A stretch of 64,000 bases of DNA, taken from the IMG/VR virus record IMGVR_UViG_3300030376_004017; one strand, given 5' to 3'. How positions within the stretch are numbered: position 1 is the stretch's first letter; the number at the start of each line of letters is the position of its first letter. Shown piece after piece: positions 18,839 to 43,247 of this stretch. The stretch is from an uncultured virus (IMG/VR IMGVR_UViG_3300030376_004017). Its lineage: Duplodnaviria; Heunggongvirae; Uroviricota; Caudoviricetes. The position numbers were made by a program, and so were the translations under genes. Below the pieces are notes generated by a model. It had not been told where the DNA came from and did no database searches. It saw nothing but the letters and a program-made list of their open reading frames with translations.

Positions 18839-18839
18839 G

Positions 18840-23207: not shown

Positions 23208-23208
23208 T

Positions 23209-23457: not shown

Positions 23458-23459
23458 AG

Positions 23460-25911: not shown

Positions 25912-25978
25912 TCTTTATAATAGTTGTATGTTACAAAACTTAAAAACGCTATAAGGTATACAACGCCAATGTAATCGC

Positions 25979-26605: not shown

Positions 26606-26642
26606 AAAAAGATAGGAGAGAGTATTAACACTCTCCCCTATC
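26606..26642 (-). terminator. Rho-independent terminator
   Basis: gataggagagagt...actctcccctatc stem with U5 on the minus strand. Confidence 0.7.
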
Positions 26643-26654: not shown

Positions 26655-27062
26655 TTACACTTCTTCCATCATGGAAGCCATCTGTTTCAGAAGTTCGTTA
26701 CCTTCCTCTGCCTTACCAGAGTTGAAAGCAGCTTGCGCTAACTTAAACAGTGCGGTAGGTGTAAGCTCACGTTGGTCAGGTTTCCACTTGTCTGCGTCAT
26801 CTGATGTAAAGAGTACACCATCATGGTGCTTCTCTTGTAAACGTGATTGCTGTGTTTTAAGATCATCTTCGTTAAGACCTTTCGGTAACGAGTTCTTGAC
26901 CTTCGCTCGTATACGACTAGCGACTTGCTGGTTTAGCAATGCTAGTACGTTGCTTTCTCCGATAGCTTCTACAGCTTCCGCTGTGGTATCGAATTGTTTC
27001 ACGGTGAATTTGAAACCTTTCCAATCACCGTCCTTGTACTCTTGTACGTTATACTGTGCCAT
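26655..27062 (-). CDS. Hypothetical protein, first gene after the sigma54 promoter
   Basis: 135-aa ORF between the promoter and a terminator. Confidence 0.65.
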   Translation of the reverse strand: MAQYNVQEYKDGDWKGFKFTVKQFDTTAEAVEAIGESNVLALLNQQVASRIRAKVKNSLPKGLNEDDLKTQQSRLQEKHHDGVLFTSDDADKWKPDQRELTPTALFKLAQAAFNSGKAEEGNELLKQMASMMEEV

Positions 27063-27123: not shown

Positions 27124-27140
27124 AGCAAGATTCGTGCCAA
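27124..27140 (-). promoter_or_regulatory. sigma54 (-24/-12) promoter for the middle/replication operon
   Basis: Minus strand TTGGCACGAATCTTGCT, full match to YTGGCACGrNNNTTGCW; intergenic and correctly oriented. Confidence 0.85.
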
Positions 27141-27164
27141 AGTGCTTGACTTTTAAAACTATTT

Positions 27165-27917
27165 TTAGTACCTTTTAACATTTTCGGGTAGTTCTTTTAA
27201 GACTTCATACCGTAACATTAACTGCTCTAGTTCACGATAGTTACCCGCTAACTTATCTACTGATAAATGTTTCATAAGAGATTGTATTTCTTTCTTAGAC
27301 ATCTTCTCGTATGCTGGATGATTCTCTATGTACAGCACAGCATCACCAACTCTTTGCATTAAAGGTGTTAGGTGTATGTTGAACGTTGATAGTCTGTAGT
27401 ATAAATCCTCTCTAAATTCCTGCATCTTTATTCGTAAGGGTAGTGATGCACACGTGGCAGCTACGATGCGGCAGTTAGCTATGCGTGTCTCGTTGTCTCC
27501 CACCCTACGGTATGTACCAAACTGTATGAAACGTAGCAACTTTGCTTGCAAGCCTAGTGGCATGTCACCTATCTCATCGAGGAACAGCGTACCATTCTTG
27601 GCATACTCTACGAGTCCGTCTCGATCTCTGAAAGCGCCTGTGTAACTACCCTTTAAATGACCGAACAACTCACTTTCAAATAGCGTATCGGTTACTGCTG
27701 TGGTATTGACTGTGACAAACTCACCTACACGTGTACCGTGTAGTATGTGCGCTATCAATTCTTTCCCTGTACCAGTAGATCCTGTGATTAAGACAGGCTC
27801 AGGACGGTAGCTTAACGTTAGCGCATTGGCTAACTGTTTCTGTATGTAGCTATCGTTGGTATTGTAACGCTTGACTCGCGCTGCTAAATCTATTGTGCGT
27901 TCTTTTTCTGTGGCCAT
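27165..27917 (-). CDS. Stand-alone sigma54 activator (bEBP AAA+ domain only)
   Basis: GSTGTGKE, ESELFGHLKGSYTGA (GAFTGA loop), LFLDEIG, QAKLLR, FREDLYYRL, GNYRELE; no receiver/GAF domain and no HTH. Confidence 0.92.
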   Translation of the reverse strand: MATEKERTIDLAARVKRYNTNDSYIQKQLANALTLSYRPEPVLITGSTGTGKELIAHILHGTRVGEFVTVNTTAVTDTLFESELFGHLKGSYTGAFRDRDGLVEYAKNGTLFLDEIGDMPLGLQAKLLRFIQFGTYRRVGDNETRIANCRIVAATCASLPLRIKMQEFREDLYYRLSTFNIHLTPLMQRVGDAVLYIENHPAYEKMSKKEIQSLMKHLSVDKLAGNYRELEQLMLRYEVLKELPENVKRY

Positions 27918-28237
27918 TGTATTTCTTTACGTCCTAGTTCTGGGTGGTATACGTGATCTGTTATGCCTCGTAGATAGCTATGATCCTCTGGCACATAGTT
28001 ATCTAACTCTAACCTGTCGTAGTAATGATACGCTAACATAACATCCCAACCTTCAGCTAAACGTTCTTTGATAAGTTTTTGATCTGTACCGTCTACGCAT
28101 AGAGTCTCACGCTTATCATAAGTCTCATCATCTTTCTTAGGTGCTAGTAGTATTAGTGGAGTGTTATCGTTGAGATCACCTAGTGTACCGAACTTTTTAT
28201 CCGACGATCTAAAGTTTATTATCTTTTCTTTAATCAT
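27890..28237 (-). CDS. Hypothetical protein
   Basis: ORF fits the operon. Confidence 0.55.
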   Translation of the reverse strand: MIKEKIINFRSSDKKFGTLGDLNDNTPLILLAPKKDDETYDKRETLCVDGTDQKLIKERLAEGWDVMLAYHYYDRLELDNYVPEDHSYLRGITDHVYHPELGRKEIQWPQKKNAQ

Positions 28238-28410
28238 TCAAAACACCCTATTCCCTTATGTTCTTCCCATTTGAGTGACCATTGCTCGAACTCTCTAAGA
28301 GTTTCTATAACTTCTTCGTGTTTGTATGCGTTCTCTCCAGTCAGTCGGTATCTTGCGTTATCGCCAAAAGCTATCTCATACACCTCGTCTATGAATTTTT
28401 CATCTGTCAT
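28234..28410 (-). CDS. Hypothetical protein (58 aa), homologue of 58936-59127
   Basis: Own translation MTDEKFIDEVYEIAFGDNARYRL...FEQWSLKWEEHKGIGCFE. Confidence 0.7.
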   Translation of the reverse strand: MTDEKFIDEVYEIAFGDNARYRLTGENAYKHEEVIETLREFEQWSLKWEEHKGIGCFE

Positions 28411-28415
28411 GATTC

Positions 28416-28769
28416 TTATTTTGTAACTTCTTCACCTGTGTTTAGGTCAATGCTTATGATTTCACTCTCACCTATCTTACGTCCCTTTGTTGCGGTGCGT
28501 ATGTATTGCTCATGCTTATGCTGAGTAAAGTGTATAGGTAGGTCGAGCGTTGTCATCAATCCGCAAAGGCGCTCACGTGTAGTGTTCGTACCCCAACCTG
28601 CTAACGTAACTGTCAGTATGTTTGTACCGATTACGTGTTCAGCTATCTTGTTACGATGTAAGTATAGTCTAACCTCTGAGTCATTAGTTAGCGTAACTTC
28701 ATCGTTGCCTGATCGCTTCGCTTGTTTGTTAGCGAATGCTTCTGTCATTTGTCTGGTTATCTTTCTCAT
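28416..28769 (-). CDS. Hypothetical early protein
   Basis: LHRNKIA...GWGTNTTRERL pattern. Confidence 0.65.
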   Translation of the reverse strand: MRKITRQMTEAFANKQAKRSGNDEVTLTNDSEVRLYLHRNKIAEHVIGTNILTVTLAGWGTNTTRERLCGLMTTLDLPIHFTQHKHEQYIRTATKGRKIGESEIISIDLNTGEEVTK

Positions 28770-29041
28770 CTTTCTTGTATGTTAGAAACTGCTGTAAGTA
28801 TCTTAGTAAGTTCTTCAGGTGATACATGTTCCATAACAGTGTCACACTTTTGCACGACACTTAAATCCATAAACTCTTTGTACTCGTACCACTTATTATC
28901 TTTATCCCATATAGCTACCTCTGCTGTAGACTTGCCACTATCGCAGTGGTTGCCAGTTCTCCAGTGTACGCTGACTGTAAATTTGTTAGACGGAAACGTT
29001 ATGTAAAAGCCGTCAGTCGTAGAATCATAGGCGTTTGTCAT
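28766..29041 (-). CDS. Hypothetical early protein
   Basis: ORF with ATGA coupling on both sides. Confidence 0.6.
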   Translation of the reverse strand: MTNAYDSTTDGFYITFPSNKFTVSVHWRTGNHCDSGKSTAEVAIWDKDNKWYEYKEFMDLSVVQKCDTVMEHVSPEELTKILTAVSNIQER

Positions 29042-29242
29042 AGCTGTCCCTCCCTTAACATAACATCTACATTTTCTGTGAACCNNNNNNNNNNTAGTCT
29101 AACTTCTGAGTCATTAGTTAGCGTAACTTCATCGTTGCCTGATCGCTTCGCTTGTTTGTTAGCGAATGCTTCTGTTATTTGTCTAGTTATCTTTCTCATA
29201 GCTGTCCCTCCCTTAACATAACATCTACATTTTCTGTGAACC
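29038..29242. repeat. Scaffold gap (N10) flanked by local duplications
   Basis: 29038-29084 repeats 29196-29242; 29095-29199 repeats ~28665-28769 with a few SNPs. Confidence 0.85.
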
Positions 29243-29732
29243 AGTAAGGCGCACCGTAACCTAGACGTTCTGAGTGTGACCACTTGGCAAAGCGTTTCTT
29301 AGCTGTACGATAGTAACGACGATAACCCATGACAGGATTTTTCAGTACGAAACAGCGATCATGGAAATCACCAAAGCATTGTGGATGTTCTGTTAGCTCA
29401 GTGTGTTTAAATGTTAGAGTACTCTTCCAAGTATCACACCACTTTATAACACTCTCACTTGCATGTTGTACGATATCACAGCCGTAACGTTTAGTGTACT
29501 CTGCGCATAACTCGTTGGCATGTTCGATAAGCCACTTGTAGTTTGCTAAGCTATGCCTAGCCCATTGCGTACATGGATGGTTGTAATGGACACGCTTGTA
29601 TGGTGGGTTGTCCATAGGATCGTAGGCTGCGCATAACATCTGCGCTGATTCGAGCGGCATCTTAACGATATGCTTATCGCATAGCATACGTGCTGCTACC
29701 TTGGGGCTTGGGTGAACTACGAATATATTCAT
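29196..29732 (-). CDS. Pyrimidine-dimer DNA glycosylase (DenV-like family)
   Basis: MNIF...DKHIVKMPLESAQML...HYNHPCTQW...YRRYY. Confidence 0.8.
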   Translation of the reverse strand: MNIFVVHPSPKVAARMLCDKHIVKMPLESAQMLCAAYDPMDNPPYKRVHYNHPCTQWARHSLANYKWLIEHANELCAEYTKRYGCDIVQHASESVIKWCDTWKSTLTFKHTELTEHPQCFGDFHDRCFVLKNPVMGYRRYYRTAKKRFAKWSHSERLGYGAPYWFTENVDVMLREGQL

Positions 29733-29815
29733 TTTGTATGTTGTTGTTTTGTCTACGTTAGCTATGTGGTATAAAACTGGTGGCCAACTGACTATGATAG
29801 TATACCACAGTTGAT

Positions 29816-30112
29816 CTACGATGTCAAGCTTTTTCTTTTCCCGTATATAAAATCTTTCATATCATAGCTGATACCTCTGTCTTCGCAAAACTTCCTATAA
29901 CTTGGGTTGAATACTTCACGTACCCACTCAACTGACACAAGCTTGTAATAGTCTCCGCTAAGATCATCGTCAACGTTAAGTAATTTATCAGGCAGCCTAG
30001 CACTATGAGGTTCTTTACCTATACCATAAGATCCTTTGCCACATGTTACTTGTAGCCTAAACTCTGACTCTATGTTAGTAGGGCCGTTAGCTGCAACGCT
30101 TCGCGATTTCAT
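29816..30112 (-). CDS. Hypothetical protein
   Basis: ORF fits the operon. Confidence 0.55.
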   Translation of the reverse strand: MKSRSVAANGPTNIESEFRLQVTCGKGSYGIGKEPHSARLPDKLLNVDDDLSGDYYKLVSVEWVREVFNPSYRKFCEDRGISYDMKDFIYGKRKSLTS

Positions 30113-31608
30113 TCTAGTAACCCTTCATCTATACCGTAGTCAACATCGTCATCTATATCAGTATCTACGTTGCCAAGTTCATCGTCTAAGTTAGGAGCGA
30201 ATAGCGAAGCCCACTGTTCTTTAGCAGATACAGCTTTATTAATACACTTAACCTTATTCTCTACCACAGCAGCTACTCGTTCCTCAATAGTATTCCTATA
30301 CCATAAGACTTCTTGCAGTGTGTTAGATTGTGAGGTGATACGATGGCTACGGCCAAGGCATTGGATCAAGTCTATCGCTGACCACGTTGGGGGTAGTATG
30401 ATATGTCGAGGTCGTGCGCTATCCTGCTCATGGTGTAGAGATATACCTACACCGCCAGCTTGTAACGTAAGTAACATGACATCACGCTTGCCCTCTTGAA
30501 ACTCATCGACATGACGTTGCCTCTGTTCGGATGACTGACCTCCGGTAACAAATCCAATACGGTCACTGTCATATCCGTAGCGTTCAGTCAGTGCTAACCA
30601 AGCGCCTCGTAACATGTTCTTGAAGTTGCTGGCTATGATAACCTGCGAGCCTTCTTGAACTGCGTTGTGCGCTCTGCCAGCAATCAACGGCGAACGTATC
30701 TCTTCAGCTTTTTGCCTGAACTTTTGCATGGCTACGAGACGAGCGGCGAGTATACCGTGACCCGTTTGACCACGCAACTTGTAAAGCTTTTCAAGATACT
30801 CGTTGTATGCGTTGTTATAAATATCACGTTCTTTCTGGTTACGAAAGTCAATGAGTACACATTCTGTATGTGCCTTATGTTTGAAACGTACGCCCTTAAC
30901 GTTAACGGTGTACGGTTCCATGACATCTTTGACACGTTCCATAGCCTTCGGACTGTACGCTGCAGTGTTACCGTATGTGGCAAGCGAGCGCATGACAGAG
31001 GGCGCAGTGTTCTGTGATAGTGGGAGTACGTTGTACTTAGAGCGCATGCCTACACCAACCATTACAGTACGCGCTTCACATACACGTTGATAGGGTGTAG
31101 CGCTGATGAATATACGTTTAACGTTCTCAGGCAATCCACGTGCAATATTTGTACGTGTGCTGTCCTCATTCTTTAACGCTTGGCATTCATCAAACACCAC
31201 TAGCTTGGGTAACATAATGTCACTCCAATCGTAGACGATGTTCTCTTGACCATAGGTTACTACTGTACGTGCTTTGTAATACATAGCGCCGCCAGTTTTA
31301 GGAGACGTAAGCGCCGAGTACGATAATACTAGCACCTTGCCAGCGATACCGTACGCTTTAAGCACACGTTTGGTTTGTATGATAGTAGCTGCAGGTGCAA
31401 TCCACAGCACGGGTATGGCAGCGTTAGCGCCTATACTTGGATCAGCTTGTAGCTCATCAACAACTTGTTTGATAGCTTGGGCTGTGATGTAGGTCTTGCC
31501 TACGCCTGTGCCAGCTTGTAGCAAAGCGCCTCGTTCATTACGTACACGTGTAGCGAGTTCGTTAGCTGCTTTTGTCTGGAATGGTATTTCTTTTGTGTTT
31601 GTTGTCAT
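30109..31608 (-). CDS. Superfamily 2 helicase
   Basis: GTGVGKT, VFDECQ, SATP, GGVGISL, QCLGRSHR. Confidence 0.85.
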   Translation of the reverse strand: MTTNTKEIPFQTKAANELATRVRNERGALLQAGTGVGKTYITAQAIKQVVDELQADPSIGANAAIPVLWIAPAATIIQTKRVLKAYGIAGKVLVLSYSALTSPKTGGAMYYKARTVVTYGQENIVYDWSDIMLPKLVVFDECQALKNEDSTRTNIARGLPENVKRIFISATPYQRVCEARTVMVGVGMRSKYNVLPLSQNTAPSVMRSLATYGNTAAYSPKAMERVKDVMEPYTVNVKGVRFKHKAHTECVLIDFRNQKERDIYNNAYNEYLEKLYKLRGQTGHGILAARLVAMQKFRQKAEEIRSPLIAGRAHNAVQEGSQVIIASNFKNMLRGAWLALTERYGYDSDRIGFVTGGQSSEQRQRHVDEFQEGKRDVMLLTLQAGGVGISLHHEQDSARPRHIILPPTWSAIDLIQCLGRSHRITSQSNTLQEVLWYRNTIEERVAAVVENKVKCINKAVSAKEQWASLFAPNLDDELGNVDTDIDDDVDYGIDEGLLE

Positions 31609-32041
31609 AGTCCTAACATGTTACGAATTTCTTCTTGTTTCATAGTGCTAAGCAGTTTCTCTATTAGCTCATCCTTAACACCTACCTTACGCATCTGCGC
31701 TTTCAAATCTTCTAACGCATCAAGCTTAGCTTTCTCGACTGCTGCGCACTTACGATCACGTTCCTCTCTACGTTGGCGTGCTGTGTTACCTACCATAGTC
31801 CACTCGCTACGCCTCCATAGTCTGTACAGTTGCTTGCCATCCTTCGTTTTACCAGCGGCTACGATGTTACCTATAGTAGCACCGCTCCAACCTACAGCGT
31901 CGGGATCACACTCGCATACGAGGTGTTCGTTACCGTAGTCACTGTTATCTATCGCAGCTTTGACAATCTCGTCTACGATAATGTATGACTTGTGTCCTAG
32001 CACAAGGTCAGCGAATAGCCTTTCATCTAGTGTTATCATAT
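31605..32041 (-). CDS. Hypothetical early protein
   Basis: ORF; start uncertain. Confidence 0.55.
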
Positions 32042-32156
32042 ATCGTATCCTATAATGCAAATGATAATTACAAAAATCCAGAGCGCCATGAACAACCCAA
32101 AGCTAAACACAGCCTCTTTCCTATGTTTGTCTAATATTTTTTCTATGTCTTTCATA

Positions 32157-32549
32157 TTACTTAACCTGTTTAAAAGCTACCTTAGTGTCTCTTATACCTA
32201 CCGCACTGTTGACTGCTGTCATCAGACCATTACAAGCGTAGCGTAGCTTTGTTGTTAAATTCATATCATTTTCTGGCGTATAATCACAGTAGCGACAACC
32301 TGCTAATGTACCATCCTGTGCTTGCTGTGTTACATGGCTGAGAGCGTCTATGCTATCCTTTACTTTAACATAAACTTTTCTTTGCACTCTGCTTTCAGCT
32401 ATCTTAGTACAAGTGTCTATGTGCGCATAGTTCAACAACTCTGCGTCATCTTCTGCTTTACCTAGTAATACTGTTAGCATATAACTAGCCTTTGACTTAT
32501 CACTTATGATATCTTCATAAGTCCACTTCAATATCTCTGCGTTATTCAT
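32157..32549 (-). CDS. Hypothetical protein, first gene of the early operon
   Basis: ORF just downstream of a sigma70-type promoter. Confidence 0.6.
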   Translation of the reverse strand: MNNAEILKWTYEDIISDKSKASYMLTVLLGKAEDDAELLNYAHIDTCTKIAESRVQRKVYVKVKDSIDALSHVTQQAQDGTLAGCRYCDYTPENDMNLTTKLRYACNGLMTAVNSAVGIRDTKVAFKQVK

Positions 32550-32598
32550 TTTGTATCGTAGCTTAGTAACAATATCATACTGCTACCAAACGGCTAAT

Positions 32599-32627
32599 AC
32601 AGTACCATAAATCTTCTACAAAGTCAA
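32599..32627 (-). promoter_or_regulatory. sigma70-type early promoter
   Basis: Minus strand TTGACT-17-TACTGT with an extended -10 TG. Confidence 0.65.
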
Positions 32628-32654
32628 GCATTATCTTCTAGCGTACAGCACGCT

Positions 32655-32970
32655 ATAACGTAGAGGTAGGTTATTTTAGAAGCGACGTTGATAATAGACA
32701 TAATCATGTTAATTTGTCAACTCAGGGTATTATACGGGTATATGGGTATGATGTTTAATTTTATACAGTATGTATATATATATACATATATATAATTCAA
32801 GTAATAACTACTAACCCTACATCAATATCAACCCTACATAAGTGTGGAGGATCCCAAGTTAACAAAATTACATGATCATGTCTATTGTCAACGATGGTTC
32901 TAAGATCACCGCTACGTTATGCTATCTACGTGAAACATAGAGCTGCGCTGTTATGCTATCTACGTGAAAC
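32655..32970. repeat. Long imperfect inverted repeat, 20-bp AT palindrome and 21-bp direct repeats (candidate origin or genome end)
   Basis: Arms ~32677-32722 and ~32857-32902; tatgtatatatatatacata at 32769-32788; gttatgctatctacgtgaaac at 32916 and 32950. Confidence 0.75.
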
Positions 32971-33071
32971 TTTTGCTACAAAAATTTAAAAGCTATGATA
33001 GTTATAAAAATCTTTTAGTTTTATAATTATTTATAACGTAGAAAAAAGATTAAAAAACTTTTAAAAAGTGC

Positions 33072-33100
33072 TTGCGTTAGAAGATAAACTAACCTACTCT
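33072..33100 (+). promoter_or_regulatory. sigma70-type promoter
   Basis: TTGCGT-17-TACTCT with an A-tract UP region. Confidence 0.5.
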
Positions 33101-33139
33101 CTTTTCGTGCTTCAAATGAAGCCATAACACATAATAAAA

Positions 33140-33616
33140 ATGAGCAATAAAACAGACAAAAAACCAGAAGATAAAGAAACTCAGTTAGTGAATGAACTAT
33201 GCGCAAGCTTAGTTCTAACTGAAACGAAAGCAAAAGGAGGCAAAACTCCTATTGCTTACTATAGTATCCCTTCAAAGGATATTGAGCTTGTCGGCGACCT
33301 AGCAGACGAACGCGGCAAACACGAAGAGTATCAAGAACGCGTCGCAATGGCCTACAATGTGCTACTGAAGACAGCGCAGACAGTCCAAAGTGATGAGGGG
33401 CGCGGTGATACGCTAAGTGAAGAGGAGAAGCTAAAACGAGCAAAAGCGCTTATCACTGAGCGCTGGTTCCTCGTAGCAGAATCCGAAGCTACAAAAACCA
33501 AACGTCAAATGACGGACGTGAAGGCTATCGTAGAGAAGCTTGCTACTGCTACCAAGGCCGGCAACGCTGAAGATATCGCGAGCCTAAACGCGCAGCTTGT
33601 AACGCTAATGGGGTAA
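33140..33616 (+). CDS. Hypothetical protein, monocistronic early gene
   Basis: ORF with its own promoter and terminator. Confidence 0.65.
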   Translation: MSNKTDKKPEDKETQLVNELCASLVLTETKAKGGKTPIAYYSIPSKDIELVGDLADERGKHEEYQERVAMAYNVLLKTAQTVQSDEGRGDTLSEEEKLKRAKALITERWFLVAESEATKTKRQMTDVKAIVEKLATATKAGNAEDIASLNAQLVTLMG

Positions 33617-33622
33617 CGTACA

Positions 33623-33650
33623 GGGGGAGGTGTAACAACCTCCCCTTTTT
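33623..33650 (+). terminator. Rho-independent terminator
   Basis: ggggaggt...acctcccc followed by T5. Confidence 0.85.
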
Positions 33651-33799
33651 CTATCGTAGCAAAAAATTTCTCAACCACAATCTAGTCGGGGTACACCCCG
33701 AATGATGCACGACTACGAACTATAACCCTCTCTGAAAAAATGACCTCTCAAACTTTTTGCTTAGAAGATGCAAAGCGCCCTGCGCAAAACACTCAGTAT

Positions 33800-33816
33800 A
33801 TGGCATGATTATTGCT
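33800..33816 (+). promoter_or_regulatory. sigma54 (-24/-12) promoter for the late/packaging operon
   Basis: ATGGCATGATTATTGCT, GG-N10-GC; intergenic at the head of the + strand late arm. Confidence 0.8.
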
Positions 33817-33921
33817 TGTAATATAGGTATGGAACATGATAATAAGTTCTCCAAGGATACTATTGCGATGTGCGAAGCTACACCATTACTCCGTTACTGG
33901 GCTACCCAAAACCCGTAAGTC

Positions 33922-36636
33922 ATGCCTGATCCATTCACCAATCAAACCACACCTCCGTTAGTCAACGTCCCTGAGTTAGATTTAGAGCGCGTTGATCCTA
34001 ACCAAGCATTGCGTGAAGTTTATCAGGCATACCCGTCACTTGCTGACCAACGCTTACCACGATTAACCAACAACATCGTTAATCCAGCGTTAACGTCTAC
34101 TGTTAACACCGTAGCAAATGAATACCTACCAGCAGGTAGAGGTTTTAATTACGATGGGCCGTGGGGCTATGCAGACGCTAACCAGAAGCTTTTAGGCACA
34201 GCACCAAACATTTCACTAGGCCCAGAGGTTACATGGTCAAGAGCGCAGCCACGCGATACGGGTGGAGGCATTCAGCCATTTAAGTCTAACGTATACTTTG
34301 ATGCAGGTGGTTCAGCCGCTGGCATGGATATAGAAGATATCGTAGCTGGTATACAAGACGCTATTAAAAACACAAATGTAGCAGGAGGCACACAAATTCC
34401 AGAAGGTTATCCAGAAGGCACTGTAAAAATTGAAGGTGGCTACGGACTTCCAGACGGCACTGCTGTACCAGATGCAGAAACGCAAGCAGAGATTGATGCT
34501 TTAATAGCACAAGGCAATGCTGATTTAGATGCTGCAGGTCAAGGTGTTGATATAGGAGATATTGGTGGCGTACAAAACGTTGATGTTAATGCTATTGACC
34601 CTGCTGGACAATCCACAGGCGGTGGAGGCGTTGAGGAAACGGGCAGAGCGCCCGGAGTAGAGATTGTTGATAATACTGGCGCTACACCTACAACGTCTAC
34701 TGTAGAGGATTGGTTAGGTATGCGTTACACAAACAATCGCGTACCAACAGGTGCTGAAGGTTTACAGTATAACGAAGCTACTGATAACCCTCTAAAGCCT
34801 ACTTATATGTTAAAACCGTCTGTGCTTGCAAAACTTAGTGCATCTTCTGAAGACCTTTTAAAAAACATAAGTAAGTTTTTTGACATAACCACAGGAAAGC
34901 AACGCTCTCAGTATGGGCCACGTCCAGAAAATGAAAGCGTATTTGCACAACAATTAAAACGTGCTAATGATTTAATAAAGGGTAGGATAGATGAAGGTAT
35001 AAAACCTTTTGAAACAAGAGGTACTTATACACAGTTAGGCGATAGAACTCCTTATGGTATAGATATTGTTAGCACACTAGCAAACTTAGAAGAGGTTATA
35101 AAAAACCCTGAAAATATAAAGACACAAGAGTATGGTGACTTACAGTTTAGGGCTTTAGTTAACTGGGCTATGTTATACAGTCAGTTTGGTTCTCAGATAG
35201 GTTTACCATTTGCGGTAGTTTCTTTGGGTGATGATATACTAAGCGCGTTTAGCAATCTTTTAGGAGATAACTGGGAAGATCGAGGTAATCCTGTGCAAGA
35301 TGTTGTACACTACAGTATTTGGAAAACTGGTGATATATTTAAAAAATCTTACAATAAAACGCTTGGACGTGCGCTAGGTAAAATAAAGCCGGGATCACTT
35401 AAAAATAAACTTGGTAAGTTAACACATAACTTTGATTTTGATTTTGGCCCTAACAAACAGCCGCAGCCTAAGATACGTATAACGTTTAACAAAAAGCCTC
35501 AAGAAGCGCCTGAGTTCAAAGGTACTCTTGGAGGTCGTAATACTTTAAATGTACCGCCATCAACGACTGAAAGTGGTGCAGGTGGTGGTAGTTTTACAAA
35601 CAGACCTACGTTGCCTCCCCCTCCGCCTAGAACAACTATTGCAATGGGGCCAGCAGAAGGTCGTGGAACATTTCCAAAACCTCCACCACAAGTTGTAGAC
35701 GCAGAAACTTTAACAACAACGCCAGTAGAACCTACTGTAAGCGATCCTGATTATGTAACACCGTTACCAGAAAATCCGAAAGATCCTTTAGAAGGTACAG
35801 AAGGTGTAGATTATAAGTATATATGGTTGCCTTATACAAACAATGAAGTCTTTAGAGGCTATAACGAAGTAGCTGAGTTAGATACTGTAGACCCAAGTCA
35901 AATCGACTTTTGGGAAAGAACACTTGTTACACGAAACTCTGCAACAGATACTTTAGGTGATAGAGTAGGTGGGGCTGTAGAAGCAGGAGGTGGTGTAGAT
36001 TATGGTGGCGGTTCTTTAGATCAATTAGAACGTGATTACTTTAATGCTAAACAGTTATGGGATGCTAAATCAGAGGACACGTCAGACATTACTGGGCCGG
36101 GAGGTATATCTGATGGTATGGGTGGCGGTGGTGGTGTTGCTGGTGGTGGTAGTGGAGGTATGGGAGGCGCTTCTGGCGGTGGTCTTGGTTTAGTTGATTC
36201 ACAAAACCCTAACGGTTGGCGTGATCCACAAAACCCTAGAGATGGTTTAGATCCAAACGCATCTTATGATCCGAACGCACGTTGGGAATCTGACTTGCCT
36301 GATGACGTTAGGCGAGATTTGCCTAGAGATCATCCACAACATGAAAACAATAGACCTGAGTGGGATAAACCTTTAGATGGTGGCTTTATTGGTACTGACT
36401 TACCAAAACCAGATCCGGCAGTAGGCTGGGATTCAGCGTTATCTCCAACTAAAATAGTTCGAGATTTCGGCCCAGACGGTGTTATAGAAGAAGTACACTC
36501 TTTAAGAACACAAACAAAATGGAATCCTGCCACAAATTCATGGGAATACTATAAATGGTATCAAGCACCTAATGAAGTTTCTCCTCCCGGCTTTATTCCG
36601 TTTGATGCTGAGAGGGTTTATCCTATTGGCGGTTAA
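33922..36636 (+). CDS. Large Pro/Gly/Asp-rich hypothetical protein
   Basis: 904-aa ORF with low-complexity tracts. Confidence 0.7.
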   Translation: MPDPFTNQTTPPLVNVPELDLERVDPNQALREVYQAYPSLADQRLPRLTNNIVNPALTSTVNTVANEYLPAGRGFNYDGPWGYADANQKLLGTAPNISLGPEVTWSRAQPRDTGGGIQPFKSNVYFDAGGSAAGMDIEDIVAGIQDAIKNTNVAGGTQIPEGYPEGTVKIEGGYGLPDGTAVPDAETQAEIDALIAQGNADLDAAGQGVDIGDIGGVQNVDVNAIDPAGQSTGGGGVEETGRAPGVEIVDNTGATPTTSTVEDWLGMRYTNNRVPTGAEGLQYNEATDNPLKPTYMLKPSVLAKLSASSEDLLKNISKFFDITTGKQRSQYGPRPENESVFAQQLKRANDLIKGRIDEGIKPFETRGTYTQLGDRTPYGIDIVSTLANLEEVIKNPENIKTQEYGDLQFRALVNWAMLYSQFGSQIGLPFAVVSLGDDILSAFSNLLGDNWEDRGNPVQDVVHYSIWKTGDIFKKSYNKTLGRALGKIKPGSLKNKLGKLTHNFDFDFGPNKQPQPKIRITFNKKPQEAPEFKGTLGGRNTLNVPPSTTESGAGGGSFTNRPTLPPPPPRTTIAMGPAEGRGTFPKPPPQVVDAETLTTTPVEPTVSDPDYVTPLPENPKDPLEGTEGVDYKYIWLPYTNNEVFRGYNEVAELDTVDPSQIDFWERTLVTRNSATDTLGDRVGGAVEAGGGVDYGGGSLDQLERDYFNAKQLWDAKSEDTSDITGPGGISDGMGGGGGVAGGGSGGMGGASGGGLGLVDSQNPNGWRDPQNPRDGLDPNASYDPNARWESDLPDDVRRDLPRDHPQHENNRPEWDKPLDGGFIGTDLPKPDPAVGWDSALSPTKIVRDFGPDGVIEEVHSLRTQTKWNPATNSWEYYKWYQAPNEVSPPGFIPFDAERVYPIGG

Positions 36637-36639
36637 GTT

Positions 36640-36996
36640 ATGAGTGCAGCTAACGAACAGATACATCAATTAAAGCGCATGGGATTCTCTAACGAAGAGA
36701 TATCCCGTGATTTGCGTTATGATAAGGAAGTTGTAGATATTGTAGCACCTGAGACTGCATCAGCCCAACAAGCTGTTGCACGACTAGACGACCTAGGTGA
36801 TGCAGCCATCAAAGTTTTAGAAGAACTTATGCACTACGGTGAGAATGACCGTGTACGTGCTGATGCTGCAAAGTTTATTGTAGATAAGCAGTATGATAAG
36901 GAAAAATCCAAGGCTACTATGGAGTTTTCACAATTCACTGAGCGTTTGCAAAGAGCGCAAGATCGTATAAAAGAGCTTCATGTGGTTGAAGGATGA
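36640..36996 (+). CDS. Terminase small subunit (putative)
   Basis: N-terminal HTH-like segment, VRADAAKFIVD; directly upstream of TerL. Confidence 0.6.
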   Translation: MSAANEQIHQLKRMGFSNEEISRDLRYDKEVVDIVAPETASAQQAVARLDDLGDAAIKVLEELMHYGENDRVRADAAKFIVDKQYDKEKSKATMEFSQFTERLQRAQDRIKELHVVEG

Positions 36997-38543
36997 AGTA
37001 CGAGAACAATGTTATTAAGTTTGCTAACCCGCATGAGATGCTTCTTGTGTGTGATGACAACTTACTTGATGGACATATAAAGCTACACCCTTGGCAGGAC
37101 AAAATTCTCAGAGATTTTGCTGAGCCATCTACCTCAGACGAACCTTATAAGGCTGTTGTCAGGGCTGCTAACGGTAGTGGTAAGGATAATTTTATTATAG
37201 CGCCTTGTGCTGTGTGGCTTTCTCTACGCTATGAAAACTCGCTTACAGTTATTACATCTGCATCTGGTAATCAGTTGGATCGACAGACAGACAAGTACAT
37301 TAAGCAGCTTACTAACGCACAAAACAAACTATTCGGTACACAGATATGGAAACAAAACTATCGGCGCTATGAGAACCTAGTAAATGGTTCAACGATAGAA
37401 ATGTTTGTGACTGACGAGGCTGGTCGAGCAGAAGGTTGGCATCCACCAGTACCCGGGGGACAGATGGCCATACTTGTTAGTGAGGCTAAGTCAATACATG
37501 ACGATATATTTACTGCGTTAGCGCGTTGCACAGGCTTTACCAAGCGCATAGACGTTAGCAGTCCCGGTATACCGTCAGGACACTTTTATAATGCGTGTGT
37601 TGGTGGTAGATGGAAGCAGCATCATGTCACAGCTTTTGATTGTCCACACCTGAGTGAGGACTATATAAGCGATATACGTAATACGTATGGCGAAAACTCT
37701 GCACTTTACCGCTCTATGGTATTGGCAGACTTCGGAGGCTTGGAAGAGCAGGTTGTTATTAACTTTTCTGCTATAGCTGAATTAGATAGCCTTGATATAG
37801 AACATGTACCTGAAGGTTATAACATAGCTGGACTTGATTTATCCGCAGGTGGTGACGAACAGGTTGTTGTTGTACGTAATGGTAATAAGGTAATTGGTGT
37901 AGAAGCCTTTAAGTTTGCAGATACAACCGTATTGTTAGACAAGCTATCAGAGGTTTTTTATAAATATGACCTCGATAATTCAGAAAGTATTATTTATGGC
38001 GATGCTGGTGGTTTGGGTAAGCCTATACTCGATCAGCTTAATCGTGATGGTTGGAATGTTCGCTATGTTCTCAATCAAGCAGCGCCTTACAACAAACTAG
38101 CATACCTTAACCGTGGTGCAGAACTTTGGTTTAGTTTAGGGAGACATTTAGAGAATGCCGAGATCATACTTCCACAAGACACTACGCTACGTAAACAACT
38201 CGCTTCGCGTTATTATACGGTCACGCCGCAAAACAAGATACAACTGGAAAGCAAACGTCAGGCCAAAGCTAAAGGCCACTCATCTCCTGATCGTGCTGAT
38301 GCTTTTGTACTTGCTTTTGCAGATTACCGAGGTGTAATGCCGCAACGTTATGCAGCGCGAGACACTGTTCAGTATGAGCTTAATGATATAGATGAGCCAG
38401 TACCAGAACAGCACTCGTCGCTACGTGCGCGGCTTAATCGACCAAAAGATCAGCATAAAAGCTTTAAGTCTACGGGTTGGAGTGATGAAATAATTTATGA
38501 AGTGGAACAGTTAAACGAAAGACTTTTACAAAATGCAAAGTGA
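36993..38543 (+). CDS. terL: Terminase large subunit
   Basis: ANGSGKD Walker A, SSP motif, GLDLS..GD, DAGGLG and SPDRADA nuclease motifs. Confidence 0.9.
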   Translation: MKYENNVIKFANPHEMLLVCDDNLLDGHIKLHPWQDKILRDFAEPSTSDEPYKAVVRAANGSGKDNFIIAPCAVWLSLRYENSLTVITSASGNQLDRQTDKYIKQLTNAQNKLFGTQIWKQNYRRYENLVNGSTIEMFVTDEAGRAEGWHPPVPGGQMAILVSEAKSIHDDIFTALARCTGFTKRIDVSSPGIPSGHFYNACVGGRWKQHHVTAFDCPHLSEDYISDIRNTYGENSALYRSMVLADFGGLEEQVVINFSAIAELDSLDIEHVPEGYNIAGLDLSAGGDEQVVVVRNGNKVIGVEAFKFADTTVLLDKLSEVFYKYDLDNSESIIYGDAGGLGKPILDQLNRDGWNVRYVLNQAAPYNKLAYLNRGAELWFSLGRHLENAEIILPQDTTLRKQLASRYYTVTPQNKIQLESKRQAKAKGHSSPDRADAFVLAFADYRGVMPQRYAARDTVQYELNDIDEPVPEQHSSLRARLNRPKDQHKSFKSTGWSDEIIYEVEQLNERLLQNAK

Positions 38544-40224
38544 TTTTACAGATTACACGGACGCAACAACAAAGATAAGGGAACTGCTTGATGTTGTTAG
38601 CGATTTAGAAACAGTTGCCGACGAGAACAGAAACTCTCGTAAACTTGACGTTAATATAGAAGCAGAGAGGGTAGATGGATACCTAGAAGAGGATGAGTTT
38701 CTTGTACCTGCACACATTATAGATAGCAATATACGGAGAGAACAGTCGAAATATGTAGCGTATGTTACGGGTAGTAGACGGTCAGCTATATTTACTTCTA
38801 TCACAGAACCAACTGCAGCAACTGGCGCACTTGAGCGAGACTTTACTGATAAGACTAGGTACGCAGGATGGCAGATACCGTTGTTTAAGGTTATTGATGG
38901 TATGCAATTGCATGGCTATAGCATAGCTGAAGTGCAGTTTGATACAGATAAGCCGGGACATTTTAGTGTTGATGCCGTGAACTTTGAGGACTTTGGCTTT
39001 CCTGCTGATACACGCGACATACAAGCGTGTGAGATGATTGTACATCGTCATTACTTCACTGCACTGCAGTTACGTGAGACAGATGACTTTAATGAGGAGG
39101 TTGTTGACATCCTATTAGGCGGCAATCCTGACGATGACTCAGGCATTGCATCATATAATGAATCACTTTATCAGATTGAAAAAATTATGTTTAAGCAAGA
39201 CGGTAAAGTTTTTGTTGCATGGTCTTGCTGTGATAAGTGTGACGATTGGTTACGAGAACCTCGTCCGTTATACCTTGGACGACGTTCTGGAGAAACTTTT
39301 GAAACTGAAACAGAGTACCCTTACATTATATTTCCTTACAATATACAAGAGGATAGCGCCATACAAAGTGCATCTGGTCGAGCATTCTTGGATCGTACAG
39401 CGCAGGAAACTATTACGTCACTAATGTCTTCGTTTGTTACAGCACATCGACGCGCTTCTAACTTTTACTTTGCGAAGGACAATGAAGATCCGAACAATAC
39501 TAACATACAGACGAGTGTTAAGTTTCAGCCGGGAGCGCTGATTGATTCAAACATAAAACAGTTTCAGTTATCGCCGCCAGATTCTTCTATGTTAGGTGCG
39601 ATTCAATCGCTTGTGAGCCAAAACTCTCAAGAACAGTCGCAAGTAAACTATGCTGCTATGAATCGTAAGGATAGTCGTAAGACTGCTACTGAAATTCAAG
39701 CAGCATCTGGCGAAGCGCAAATGTTGTCATCAACACAGGTGTCTTTGTTTAGCATAGCACTTAAAGATGTTTATGATATTTGTTTTAGGATTTATCAATC
39801 AAGGGTGATTGTAGGCGCGTTGAGGCCGTCTGCACCTCTTGATTTATTCCTTAACCACGTATACAACATTAAACCTGCAGGTGATGTAGATGTTATAGAA
39901 CGTGCTGAGAAATCGCAGAAGATGATGCAAGCGTGGCCAGTGGTTGCGCAAACAGCATTGGCATCTACGTTTTTACAGAACATGATGCGCTTGATGTTCC
40001 CTGATGAAGGGGAGTCTTATGCAGAAATGCTGCAGACAGGCGATCAAAAGAACGCGCTACTACAACAGCTTATGCAAATTGTAAACGCGCTTGTAGTAGA
40101 TCAAGAAACAGGGCAGCTTAACGAAGACGCACAGCCATTTGCAGATAAACTGCAGATGATACAGTCACAAGTTCAAGATGTCTTAGGTACAGATGACAAA
40201 GGAACTCCTACGCCAACAGGTTGA
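38533..40224 (+). CDS. Portal protein
   Basis: 563 aa after TerL; KTATEI motif. Confidence 0.8.
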   Translation: MQSDFTDYTDATTKIRELLDVVSDLETVADENRNSRKLDVNIEAERVDGYLEEDEFLVPAHIIDSNIRREQSKYVAYVTGSRRSAIFTSITEPTAATGALERDFTDKTRYAGWQIPLFKVIDGMQLHGYSIAEVQFDTDKPGHFSVDAVNFEDFGFPADTRDIQACEMIVHRHYFTALQLRETDDFNEEVVDILLGGNPDDDSGIASYNESLYQIEKIMFKQDGKVFVAWSCCDKCDDWLREPRPLYLGRRSGETFETETEYPYIIFPYNIQEDSAIQSASGRAFLDRTAQETITSLMSSFVTAHRRASNFYFAKDNEDPNNTNIQTSVKFQPGALIDSNIKQFQLSPPDSSMLGAIQSLVSQNSQEQSQVNYAAMNRKDSRKTATEIQAASGEAQMLSSTQVSLFSIALKDVYDICFRIYQSRVIVGALRPSAPLDLFLNHVYNIKPAGDVDVIERAEKSQKMMQAWPVVAQTALASTFLQNMMRLMFPDEGESYAEMLQTGDQKNALLQQLMQIVNALVVDQETGQLNEDAQPFADKLQMIQSQVQDVLGTDDKGTPTPTG

Positions 40225-40456
40225 TATATGGTGTGATAGCCACACCACAAGAATTTTTAGAGGATTGCTTAACGATAAACGTGAGCGATTACTTAAAGAA
40301 ATGAAATTTGCTATGCAGAAGCACGATAATCCTGAGATTACTGTACGTCTTGTAGCGAAGTTAGCAGAGTTAGATGAAGTTATAGCACACACGAAAGATG
40401 CAAACACAATTACAGAACACGGAAGTAGAGGAGTCGTTAGCACAGGAAATGTCTAA
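40193..40456 (+). CDS. Hypothetical head-module protein
   Basis: Small ORF between portal and scaffold. Confidence 0.5.
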   Translation: MTKELLRQQVDIWCDSHTTRIFRGLLNDKRERLLKEMKFAMQKHDNPEITVRLVAKLAELDEVIAHTKDANTITEHGSRGVVSTGNV

Positions 40457-41528
40457 TGACGACTCGAACACAGAGTCTATTTCCTTCGACGGAGAGCTTA
40501 TCGAAGATGACGAAGGAAACGAAGGAGACGTACAAGAAGATGTACAAGAGGCGGTTGAAGCATCATCAGATGGATTTACTGACGCTGAAGATGATGATGG
40601 AACTGTCAGTGATGGAGGAGGAGATGATGAAGATAATGAAGAAGTGTCAGAAGGAACTGCTGACGAAGACGAAGAGACTTCAGAACTCTCTAAATCGCTT
40701 GGAAAGTTAAACACTCCTAAAGGTCGAGACTACAGCAAGTTTAGCGAAGAAGATGCTAAGTATCTTAAACAAATGTCTAATGATGCGTTTGAGCATTTTA
40801 GTAAACGCGCTGAAGAAAACAAAAATTTACAAGAGTCTTTAGAAAAAACTAAAGAGTCTAGCCAAAGTATTGCAGATCATCCAGAGGCTTACTTGTTAAG
40901 TGATGAATATAAAGAACATTCTACTAACTTAACAAAAGCGCAGCAGGAACAATCTCACTGGAGAGCGCAGCTTATTAAAATACGTAACGGAGAAAACTGG
41001 CAAAACATAGAAGGCTACAATGAGTCTGGTCAATTGATTATCAGTAAGGATGGTTATAAACCTACGCAACAGTCAGAGATTGATGTTGAAATGGCGATGC
41101 AGGAAGCTGCTGGCCTTAGTCGTAAGTTCTCAGATAAGCTTGAAAACGTAAGCACATCATACAGTAAATCATATAAAGATGCTGTACAATTGCTTGATAG
41201 CGAACAAAAAGCTAACTTTGCATGGACAACTGATGAGGATGTAGCAAAGCAAGAACTTGTAATACCTAACATGGGTAACACCACAATTCAGCAGATAAAA
41301 ACTGGATTCTCTAGTGCATTACCTAAGACATTTCAGAAGCATCCTCTTGCTGAACTTGCTTCTAACTTGTTTGTTACGTTACAGTTACAGTCAGCACACG
41401 CAGCATCTGAGAAAGCTGCTGTTAAAGAATCTAAACGCAAGGAACCAAAAGCTAAGCGTAAGTCTAGCGCAGGGGCGACTCCATCTTCTAAAGATGATCT
41501 TACGTTACCTGACTGGATGGACATTTAA
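40398..41528 (+). CDS. Capsid scaffolding protein (putative)
   Basis: Acidic N-terminus, coiled coil, basic C-terminus; precedes the capsid gene. Confidence 0.65.
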   Translation: MQTQLQNTEVEESLAQEMSNDDSNTESISFDGELIEDDEGNEGDVQEDVQEAVEASSDGFTDAEDDDGTVSDGGGDDEDNEEVSEGTADEDEETSELSKSLGKLNTPKGRDYSKFSEEDAKYLKQMSNDAFEHFSKRAEENKNLQESLEKTKESSQSIADHPEAYLLSDEYKEHSTNLTKAQQEQSHWRAQLIKIRNGENWQNIEGYNESGQLIISKDGYKPTQQSEIDVEMAMQEAAGLSRKFSDKLENVSTSYSKSYKDAVQLLDSEQKANFAWTTDEDVAKQELVIPNMGNTTIQQIKTGFSSALPKTFQKHPLAELASNLFVTLQLQSAHAASEKAAVKESKRKEPKAKRKSSAGATPSSKDDLTLPDWMDI

Positions 41529-41541
41529 AAGGCTTGTTATA

Positions 41542-41558
41542 TTGGCATAGTTCTTGCT
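41542..41558 (+). promoter_or_regulatory. sigma54 (-24/-12) promoter for the major capsid gene
   Basis: TTGGCATAGTTCTTGCT, GG-N10-GC; intergenic. Confidence 0.8.
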
Positions 41559-41728
41559 ATACTATAAACGTGCTTCGATATGGGTAAGGGCATACCCCTT
41601 TGTTAGGGAAACTTAACATTGCTGAAATAATGCTTCTATTGGCGAAGGGCATCGCAGCGTAAGGAGGAACGCGCTGAGATGTTCTTCGCTTTTGTTTTTT
41701 AAACACGATAAAATAATTATAAAATATT

Positions 41729-43192: not shown

Positions 43193-43207
43193 TTGTGTGT
43201 TGTTGTC

Positions 43208-43247
43208 GTGGAGTAGGGAGTTGTGGTAGCTCTCTACTCCACTTTTT
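43208..43247 (+). terminator. Rho-independent terminator
   Basis: gtggagtagggag...ctctctactccac followed by T5. Confidence 0.85.

Follow-up and report, generated by a model that had tools for sequence, protein, structure and literature searches.

A minimal phage sigma-54 activator and three matching predicted promoters: middle and late genes very probably transcribed through the host's alternative RNA polymerase

Does a phage that carries an ATPase of the sigma-54 activator class use it to switch on its own operons? The 64,000-nt stretch of DNA analyzed here (the window) raises this question. The initial annotation had described an enhancer-binding-protein AAA+ gene at the end of a leftward early run together with three intergenic -24/-12 sites, and had proposed a cascade in which early, sigma-70-dependent expression of the activator turns on the middle and late genes through host RpoN. 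The relevant features, in order along the window, are:

17933..26581, (-): remainder of the P1 operon (ORF content and family matches)
26611..26642, (-): strong hairpin resembling an intrinsic terminator (14 pairs and a T-run), immediately 3' of the 135-aa gene
26655..27062, (-): 135-aa gene, the first behind P1; its orthologues follow P1 in 12 relatives
27124..27140, (-): P1, predicted sigma-54 -24/-12 promoter, with TGGCACGAATCTTGCT at 27124-27139 (consensus scan, conservation)
27165..27917, (-): predicted sigma-54 activator, 250 aa, AAA+ module only (PF00158, PDB alignment, motif conservation)
27890..32549, (-): leftward early operon preceding the activator gene (ORF map, Pfam)
32550..33139, no strand assigned: divergent control region of 590 nt with repeats, a palindrome and boxes
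33140..33647, (+): rightward early gene (158 aa) and terminator-like hairpin at 33622-33647 (ORF map, hairpin scan)
33800..33816, (+): P2, predicted sigma-54 promoter, with TGGCATGATTATTGCT at 33801-33816 (consensus scan)
33922..41528, (+): P2 operon (Pfam, PHROG)
41542..41558, (+): P3, predicted sigma-54 promoter, with TGGCATAGTTCTTGCT at 41543-41558 (consensus scan, capsid-anchored loci)
41559..41728, (+): structured capsid leader (hairpin and terminator scans, comparison with relatives)
41729..43242, (+): gene for the probable major capsid protein (487 aa) and strong terminator-like hairpin at 43208-43242 (position, Foldseek)

An activator reduced to its AAA+ module

Judged from its sequence, the 250-aa protein is an AAA+ module of the sigma-54 activator type that remains intact, with every catalytic and sigma-54-contact motif present. 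Residues 22-182 match the Pfam sigma-54 interaction domain PF00158 (E 1.4e-53, 181.5 bits against a cutoff of 20.2), and the chain carries Walker A (GSTGTGKE), an L1 loop (GSYTGA), Walker B (TLFLDE) and sensor II (GNYREL). In the PDB comparison residues 40-240 match the isolated AAA+ domains of FleQ and NtrC1, the best relatives being the AAA+ domains of FleQ, NtrC1, FlrA and PspF (E down to 2.9e-46). Across 24 relatives the Walker residues G46, G49, G51, K52, D114 and E115 are invariant, as are R169, D171, L172, R175, N226 and R228 in the arginine finger region and sensor II (FRxDLYYRL; GNxREL); the L1 loop occurs as GSFTGA, GAFTGA or GSYTGA, always with G90 and T93, and S and Y replacements in the GAFTGA loop are expected to retain function. 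The activity that we would predict for the phage protein is ATP-dependent opening of E-sigma54 closed complexes.

Enhancer binding, implied by the original description, calls for a refinement. Pfam finds no C-terminal HTH (PF02954), a domain present in the long bacterial homologues, and the chain stops ~10 residues past sensor II; with no DNA-binding domain, the protein would be an enhancer-independent activator and not literally an enhancer-binding protein. It also has no receiver, GAF, PAS or V4R domain, only ~20-40 unassigned residues N-terminal to the AAA+ core. An N-terminal regulatory domain is optional in this family (PspF is also without one). A high concentration is generally believed necessary for activators without DNA-binding domains, which weighs against the proposed switch.

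The gene is indeed the last ORF of the leftward run from 32549 to 27165. The operon upstream of it comprises small ORFs, a pyrimidine-dimer glycosylase-like protein and an SNF2/DEAD helicase, and the terminator scan gave no (-)-strand terminator-like site inside 27890..32549. The start of this run is less clear. The sigma-70-type promoter to which it had been assigned (32599-32627, TTGACT-17-TACTGT) fails a consensus scan and is doubtful as the early promoter; better leftward candidates lie at 32720-32691 (TTGACA-18-TATTAT, 11/12) and 32757-32729, with an internal one at 29827-29799. Promoter-like matches in the control-region area are not commoner than in shuffles (36 vs 39.5), and the Bacteroidota-type -33/-7 pattern has a single full intergenic match, at 32891-32863 (-), which is insufficient to fix the promoter type of the host. 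Also in the control region are an AT palindrome, two promoter-like repeats in inverted orientation (~32690-32722 and ~32862-32893) and three TAGAAGAT boxes (32611, 32633 and 33078). A further TAGAAGAT box lies at 33762-33769, upstream of P2, and the box found upstream of sigma-54 sites has a fixed position, ending 8 nt before TGGCA (~-42 to -35).

Three sites at operon heads and their conservation

The three GG-N10-GC sites lie where they had been placed, correctly oriented, and the consensus scan makes them the sole perfect matches in the 64 kb: TGGCAYNNNNNTTGCW occurs three times, at P1, P2 and P3, and in each the TGGCAC-N5-TTGCW match has exactly 10 nt separating GG from GC. Against these three perfect TGGCAY-N5-TTGCW sites 0.25 were expected, and none of 100 shuffles produced three or more. 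Only the near-perfect class stands out, since a relaxed scan (at most two mismatches to TGGCACN5TTGCW) gives 42 matches against 38.1 expected. The other matches with at most one mismatch (20525+, 27547-, 42255- and 51763+) all fall within coding sequence; the looser TGGCA-N7-TGCW has four matches, the fourth (51763) inside a small membrane-protein ORF. P1, P2 and P3 are all intergenic and face operon-first genes: P1 lies 25 nt past the activator stop codon and 61 nt ahead of the 135-aa gene, P2 lies 105 nt ahead of the 904-aa ORF, and P3 lies 14 nt past the scaffold-like gene and 170 nt ahead of the capsid gene. Transcription would start ~12 nt past the GC of each. A search for RNA runs containing the window sequence listed none; its two matching runs, both Logan contigs, share 0.20-0.23 of the words.

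The gene map agrees with the functions claimed for these operons, replication behind P1, terminase and portal behind P2, and capsid behind P3. The 135-aa protein has no Pfam or PHROG match and an AF2 model of low confidence (pLDDT 67.6, pTM 0.32); the rest of the P1 operon encodes a 200-aa ORF, a PD-(D/E)XK nuclease, AAA_24, DUF669, a family A DNA polymerase, a DUF3987 primase/helicase and small ORFs. The P2 operon runs from the 904-aa protein, of no assigned family, through a 118-aa ORF, the large terminase (phrog_2, E 1.3e-26) and the portal (a weak SU10_portal match) to a 376-aa scaffold-like protein. In the ESM Atlas the 135-aa and 904-aa proteins returned only unnamed viral clusters, below 0.9. 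The 487-aa product behind P3 is probably the major capsid protein: the top Foldseek ranks for its low-confidence AF2 model (pLDDT 53.9) are nearly all HK97-fold phage capsid proteins, though weak (best E 0.009, with no match at E <=0.001). As the annotation had also held, no phage RNA polymerase or sigma factor is apparent; the Pfam scan of 55 ORFs found neither family above threshold, and a sub-threshold Sigma70_r4 match (E 0.0048) falls in an unrelated ORF (54566-55111).

Between P3 and the capsid gene, a GCTTC-spacer-hairpin unit occurs twice in the leader, each time with loop AAGGGCAT (41580-41599 and 41639-41658). A terminator-like hairpin with a U-run lies there as well (~41641-41700). 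Across the leaders compared a GCTWC box stands 11-17 nt ahead of a covarying 3-4-bp stem with an invariant AAGGGCAT loop, usually twice; the leader terminator is confined to the window's own subclade. The short linear GCTWC box resembles boxA, and a GCTTCT box plus hairpin, present twice in the stretch from a late promoter to a hairpin resembling an intrinsic terminator and followed by a very long virion operon, is reminiscent of the late control of lambda (PR'-tR' with Q; N with nut boxA-boxB). It is a resemblance only: the leader has no sequence similarity to that of lambda, and no N- or Q-like gene was identified in the phage. An Rfam scan of 26000-43000 gave no family at E <=1.

If the activator acts on these sites, relatives that carry it should keep them, and close relatives do. 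In IMG/VR loci anchored on the activator (59-99% identical), a TGGCAY-N5-YTGCT site follows 3-46 nt past its stop codon in 37/37; these represent nine distinct 16-mers in which TGGCA and TGCT are constant and spacer positions vary. The post-activator site is present in 6/30 remote loci. Loci anchored instead on the capsid protein (27-99% identical) have a -24/-12 site within the upstream 260 nt in 25 of 26 cases (the exception is L176), with departures to GTGCT (G002) or ATGCT (G004) at -12 and to TGGCAG at -24 in nine loci. All nine near-complete relatives examined combine a short activator with 2-7 sites. Four of them (G002, G004, G005 and G006) have 2, 3, 5 and 7 strict sites, against none for a reversed control pattern, and these stand in front of the capsid gene and of the terminase and post-activator operons; in each of the other five (G007-G011) the activator ORF measures 240-261 aa and is accompanied by 2-5 sites, of which one lies just past it. 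Strict sites in five genomes are intergenic in 20/20 cases, where the mean intergenic fraction is 0.11 (binomial P ~1e-19). A co-oriented ORF of at least 60 aa follows 16 of these 20 by a crude ORF caller, and P1 of the window is among the four misses because the caller passed over the conserved 135-aa gene in favor of an ORF on the opposite strand. Among the relatives examined, none without the activator was found. In the more distant G004-G006, sigma-54 sites also stand ahead of the activator-bearing operon, which suggests positive feedback and not a strict relay from sigma-70 to sigma-54.

In the activator tree a well-supported split (SH-aLRT 99) sets the short activators (69 rows, 67 of them <=300 aa) apart from the long bacterial forms. 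Their family has hundreds of member sequences, is abundant in marine viromes and is without a cultured representative. The nearest match in bacterial genomes is 54% identical over a 152-residue segment (full-length matches reach ~38-48%), and the search there for prophage relatives returned ordinary bacterial activators only (<=54% over part of the protein). GenBank phages gave no near-DNA match to the window, and tblastn with the activator gave 44% at best, mostly in records resembling bacterial DNA. In the search for cultured relatives nothing matched the capsid protein at E <=1e-8, and the DNA polymerase was 25% identical at best.

A sigma-54 switch and its alternatives

We consider it likely that the phage activator drives P1-P3 through the host sigma-54 polymerase, and the middle and late program is very probably run through this alternative enzyme of the host. 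The ~46-kb uncultured marine phage would make its minimal activator from the leftward early operon via the host's ordinary RNA polymerase, while host core polymerase with host sigma-54 (RpoN) would wait in closed complexes at P1-P3. The activator, presumably a constitutively active, ring-forming AAA+ module, would reach these complexes from solution and open them by means of ATP hydrolysis and its GSYTGA loop. From P1 the phage would express the 135-aa protein together with its replication/recombination genes, while P2 would serve the genes for terminase, portal and scaffold, and P3 the capsid gene plus the downstream virion genes by read-through; terminators past the early rightward gene, the 135-aa gene and the capsid gene would shape transcript levels. 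Early timing, action via host RpoN and enhancer independence are what we infer for the activator, and rpoN in the host is an assumption. With one activator and one promoter class, middle and late timing are not separable by these alone. The sequence-level and comparative tests all agree with the cascade as first proposed (the intact activator, the canonical and exclusive operon-head sites, their joint conservation and no phage polymerase or sigma factor detected), but the named early promoter is doubtful and the strict relay questionable.

A wider reading would have a widespread family of marine phages run all non-early transcription via host sigma-54 with a virus-specific, enhancer-independent activator, and would add the TAGAAGAT box and a nut-like AAGGGCAU hairpin as further layers of a portable, self-contained three-tier cascade. 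A phage DNA-binding protein on the TAGAAGAT box (also near the early promoters) would then shut the early promoters and favor the sigma-54 ones, and the AAGGGCAU hairpin pair would let polymerase pass the leader and post-capsid terminators into a ~20-kb virion operon. We offer this tentatively and think it rather unlikely in full.

It is improbable that the activator chiefly reprograms host sigma-54 promoters (nitrogen, motility, envelope stress, RNA repair), with the phage sites secondary or tolerated. A protein with no DNA-binding domain would be unable to discriminate phage from host promoters, and a truncated DctD AAA+ domain is reported to activate the Salmonella sigma-54 regulon promiscuously and constitutively (PMC3844500). 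Yet the sites are kept at three fixed operon heads even where the activators are only 41-66% identical, and this, with the intergenic position of every strict site, points to selection acting directly on the phage sites. Activation of the phage promoters may well be accompanied by host reprogramming.

Nor do we give much credence to a -24/-12-like motif read by an unrecognized phage factor, sigma-54-like or a polymerase, in place of host RpoN. Many early ORFs are without a family assignment, but at 58-151 aa they are far under sigma-54 size, and no ORF matches sigma-54 or RNA polymerase families; the 904-aa protein is itself encoded behind P2 and lacks conservation among relatives, and the motif agrees with the canonical bacterial consensus as far as TGGCAC-N5-TTGCT. 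That P1, P2 and P3 are accidental or relic matches, with the genes transcribed from ordinary promoters by read-through, is scarcely credible: there is no terminator between the activator gene and P1, so early transcripts can enter the 135-aa gene, but this reading is contradicted by the shuffles, by conservation despite spacer turnover, by independent recovery of the sites from capsid-anchored loci and by the 20 intergenic sites, and the terminator-like hairpin at 33622-33647, between the early rightward gene and P2, is predicted to insulate P2 from early transcription.

Known systems and what the switch would mean

Bacterial sigma-54 activators without a DNA-binding domain include Helicobacter pylori FlgR, Chlamydia CtcC and Rhodobacter sphaeroides FleT. 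The phage protein shares with them an AAA+ module with a GAFTGA-type loop, no C-terminal HTH and presumed contact from solution; unlike these cellular regulators it is virus-encoded and would target the virus's own operons, and whereas FlgR and CtcC keep an activity-gating receiver domain, it is devoid of both sensor and DNA-binding domains. Two laboratory truncations, PspF(1-275) and the DctD AAA+ domain on its own (PMC3844500), are likewise minimal activators that need neither enhancer binding nor a signal, but they are engineered fragments, whereas the minimal form here is natural and conserved across the clade (the 69-row side of the tree).

Among phages, T4 late transcription, in the account drawn on here, uses the gp55 sigma, gp33 and the gp45 sliding clamp (PMC2988020). 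There too a phage-encoded, energy-dependent activator opens late promoters that host polymerase alone cannot, but T4 supplies its own sigma and a DNA-loaded clamp, while the present phage would borrow host sigma-54 and bring only an ATPase. The sigma factors encoded by phiEco32 and 7-11 (PMC8948821, in the passages concerned) similarly redirect host polymerase to another class of promoters, that of the middle and late genes; those phages supply the specificity subunit, whereas here the subunit would be the host's and the phage would supply the unlocking enzyme. Htm (Gp204) of an E. coli phage is an AAA+ protein with structural similarity to such activators and without a DNA-binding domain, and it is hypothesized to act on sigma-54 polymerase (bioRxiv 10.64898/2026.10.06.757011). 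In the passages of that report on the protein, Htm has no GAFTGA loop, carries DD where Walker B would have DE, and is discussed as a modulator of host genes with no mention of phage sigma-54 promoters; the present activator has the loop, DE and matching promoters. Our literature search found no description of a phage using such a sigma-54 switch. Pectobacterium phage Q19 gp2 has a weak HHpred likeness to sigma-54 only, with no activator or promoters described, and so is a different case; a Caulobacter GTA paper mentions sigma-54 activators by analogy only; and the phiRIO-1 and PhiGT1 podovirus papers make no mention of sigma, RpoN, NtrC, promoter or enhancer.

Phages take over host transcription by way of their own polymerases, sigma factors, sigma appropriators, antiterminators and classical activators. 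If the proposed switch is real, use of the host's enhancer-dependent sigma-54 holoenzyme as the middle and late phage polymerase, unlocked by a phage ATPase, would be a further strategy. A minimal natural activator with three compact promoters would also be a ready-made orthogonal switch for synthetic biology. For a virus such a switch would be attractive: timing would be tight, since sigma-54 promoters are silent without an activator, and shut-off of host sigma-70 would be harmless to the phage. Infection would also turn on the entire sigma-54 regulon of the host.

Sigma-54 sites and their conservation

The initial annotation had placed three sigma-54 -24/-12 sites in the window, and a genome scan bore this out: the pattern TGGCAYNNNNNTTGCW has just three matches in the 64 kb, all of them at those same sites.

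27124..27140, minus strand: P1, 25 nt 3' of the activator stop codon and 61 nt 5' of a conserved 135-aa gene
33800..33816, plus strand: P2, 105 nt 5' of the gene heading the terminase/portal operon
41542..41558, plus strand: P3, 14 nt 3' of a scaffold-like gene and 170 nt 5' of the probable capsid gene

By shuffling, 0.25 matches are expected, and three were reached in 0 of 100 shuffles. Only the near-perfect class is special, since with up to two mismatches there are 42 matches vs. 38 expected in the 64 kb; the remaining matches with at most one mismatch fall within coding sequence. The looser TGGCA-N7-TGCW adds a single match, within a small membrane-protein ORF.

Conservation was followed in two sets of IMG/VR loci, one of 67 loci with an activator relative and one, independent of the activator, of 26 loci collected with a capsid-homologue profile (27–99% identical). 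In the first, all 37 loci with a 59–99% identical protein carry TGGCAY-N5-YTGCT 3–46 nt past the activator stop on the same strand, in nine distinct 16-mers in which TGGCA and TGCT are fixed and the positions between vary; 6 of the 30 remoter loci have a site after the stop, the rest being mostly long, bacterial-type proteins. In the capsid-anchored set, the 260 nt upstream contain TGG[CT]A[CT]-N5-NTGC[AT] in 16 loci and TGGCAG-N5-YTGCT in 9 more, leaving one locus (L176) with no site in that interval. No relative lacking the activator was found among those examined.

Four related records, G002, G004, G005 and G006, contain two, three, five and seven strict sites, respectively, and no match to a reversed control pattern. 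The sites precede the gene after the activator, the terminase/portal operon and the capsid gene and, in G004–G006, additionally the SNF2-helicase operon leading to the activator. Together with the window, all 20 strict sites are intergenic (mean intergenic fraction 0.11; binomial P ~1e-19), and a crude ORF caller places a co-oriented ORF of at least 60 aa after 16 of them; at the window's P1, one of the four misses, it took an antisense ORF instead of the conserved 135-aa gene. Five near-complete records reached via the capsid (G007–G011) each have a 240–261-aa activator ORF and 2–5 sites, one of them immediately after that ORF.

An octamer, TAGAAGAT, is also enriched (11 copies in the window vs. 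2.06 expected; 0 of 100 shuffles as high). At P1, P2 and P3 of G002-type relatives its end lies precisely 8 nt 5' of TGGCA (about -42 to -35), and 17 of 47 distinct site instances have it at this offset with at most one mismatch. Window copies lie at 32611, 32633 and 33078, by the early promoters, at 33762, 31 nt before P2, and elsewhere, and P1 and P3 have diverged TAAAAG boxes at the -42 to -35 position; copies occur in G002 at 25040, 31745 and 40315 and also in loci L007–L038 and L171–L174.

The activator and its family

The activator ORF (27165–27917, minus strand, 250 aa) matches PF00158 at 181.5 bits (cutoff 20.2), and residues 40–240 align with the isolated AAA+ domains of FleQ, NtrC1, FlrA and PspF. 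It has the Walker A motif GSTGTGKE, ESELFGH, the L1 loop GSYTGA, Walker B TLFLDE, an arginine-finger region and the sensor II GNYREL, with key residues invariant in 24 relatives. The protein ends about ten residues past sensor II, and receiver, GAF, PAS and HTH domains are all absent from it. The earlier description as a bacterial enhancer-binding protein therefore holds for the sigma-54 activator module and fails for enhancer binding: lacking an HTH or sensor domain, the protein is predicted to be an activator of sigma-54 polymerase unable to bind an enhancer.

Homologues number in the thousands in a database search. Those closest to the protein (about 50% identity or more) measure 234–290 aa, have no HTH_8 and are confined to metagenomes and viromes, where their contigs reach 51–53 kb; in bacterial genomes the closest match has 54% identity over a 152-residue segment, full-length matches reaching about 38–48%. 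A tree of 119 homologues, built by a quick method and rooted only at the midpoint, separates 69 rows (67 of at most 300 aa) from the long bacterial forms (SH-aLRT 99).

Genome organization and transcription units

About 4.4–50 kb of the window is a single phage genome of ~46 kb, collinear with G002 (a 43.6-kb record rated 94% complete) at 65–79% DNA identity and nearly identical to the 31.8-kb record G001. No tRNA genes were found in the window.

33140–49743, plus strand: rightward virion arm, its tail genes continuing at 4.4–17.7 kb
17933–32549, minus strand: leftward arm with early genes, activator and replication genes
32550–33139: divergent control region, 590 nt

Four terminator-like hairpins, each with a T-run, were located.

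26642–26611: 3' of the 135-aa gene
33622–33647: 3' of the early rightward 158-aa gene
41664–41700: within the capsid leader
43208–43242: 3' of the capsid gene

The second, following the 158-aa gene, would shield P2 from early transcription. No such hairpin separates the early leftward genes from the activator, consistent with their being transcribed together. The early promoter first proposed at 32599–32627 fails a consensus scan; better leftward candidates are 32720–32691 (11/12), 32757–32729 and, internally, 29827–29799, in a region where consensus matches are not above chance. The control region also holds an inverted pair of ~30-nt promoter-like repeats (32690–32722, 32862–32893) around an (AT)n palindrome (32765–32800), each reading as a sigma-70-like promoter one way and as a TTG-N18-TAnnTTTG-like element the other; the pair may serve as divergent early promoters that share an operator, or as an origin.

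The capsid leader (41559–41728) contains two units, each a GCTWC box, a 3–6-nt spacer, a 3–4-bp stem, the invariant 8-nt loop AAGGGCAT and a return stem; in loci L170–L195 they lie at about 740–1000. Of the 26 capsid-anchored loci, 25 have the hairpin and L192 an unpaired variant; the stems come in five forms (GGT/ACC, GCG/CGC, GTG/CAC, GCC/GGC, TGCA/TGCA). Across 25 distinct instances 88% of cells are paired, with a covariation score of 0.75 vs. 0.15 shuffled (reached by 0 of 500 shuffles) and at most 0.25 in slid controls; Rfam has no family that matches it. Within the window's subclade the units are followed by an intrinsic-terminator-like hairpin and its U-run, right before the capsid start codon, a layout that appears to resemble the familiar lambda nut or PR'-tR' arrangements.

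Tail-fibre C-terminus and DUF2589 genes occur in two diverged copies (1–4468 vs. 46081–50078; 77–92% identical) ~45.8 kb, or one genome length, apart, and beyond the second copy 50100–64000 is a different module with an exonuclease, RusA, a DnaB-like helicase, PD-(D/E)XK, a DPBB lytic transglycosylase, DUF3846 and a VWA and AAA_5 pair. An early small gene (28230–28410) has a 77–82% identical copy in this module (58932–59115), and the PD-(D/E)XK_5 (17349–17753 vs. 57707–58219) and DUF3846 (17933–18271 vs. 59506–59949) genes are likewise paired. Two small hydrophobic ORFs at 5293–5468 (in a gap of the ORF caller) and 51681–51857 are homologous to each other and look holin-like. The source record may be two related phages joined, or a chimera produced in assembly at the fibre repeats. 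The early small-ORF cluster contains direct repeats of 105 nt (28665–28769/29095–29199) and 51 nt (29034–29084/29192–29242), both 97–98% identical, which suggests that an early gene boundary was duplicated locally not long ago.

Host and proposed switch

No cultured relative was found in the GenBank phage collection, and no prophage relative in bacterial genomes. Only 6 of 48 phage genes (window 4400–50000) have an upstream Shine-Dalgarno-like core, and in G002 and G004–G006 the proportion is 10–19% vs. 7% by chance; start codons in all of these lie in A-rich context. So few cores suggest a host with Shine-Dalgarno-independent initiation. Bacteroidota initiate in this way and have rpoN, and would fit as host.

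In the proposed mechanism, the activator would be made early via the host housekeeping holoenzyme, while host E-sigma54 would be held in closed complexes at P1–P3; acting from solution and signal-free, the activator would open these complexes and so turn on replication, packaging and capsid genes. Because the activator operon in G004–G006 has its own sigma-54 site, the genomes suggest positive feedback there.

Full-text searches of the openly readable literature turned up no phage for which transcription of its genes from sigma-54 promoters by a self-encoded activator is either demonstrated or suggested. The nearest case, in a 2026 preprint (bioRxiv 10.64898/2026.10.06.757011), is Htm, an E. 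coli phage AAA+ protein for which contact with sigma-54 polymerase is hypothesised; as described there it lacks the GAFTGA loop, whereas the window's activator has a GSYTGA loop. A Pectobacterium phage paper mentions a weak sigma-54-like HHpred match.

The sites and the activator gene are real, and with high confidence the sigma-54 switch first put forward is their best reading. It would put a known mechanism to a new use, and comparative genomics supports it well. If the mechanism is true, all host sigma-54 promoters would be fired too.
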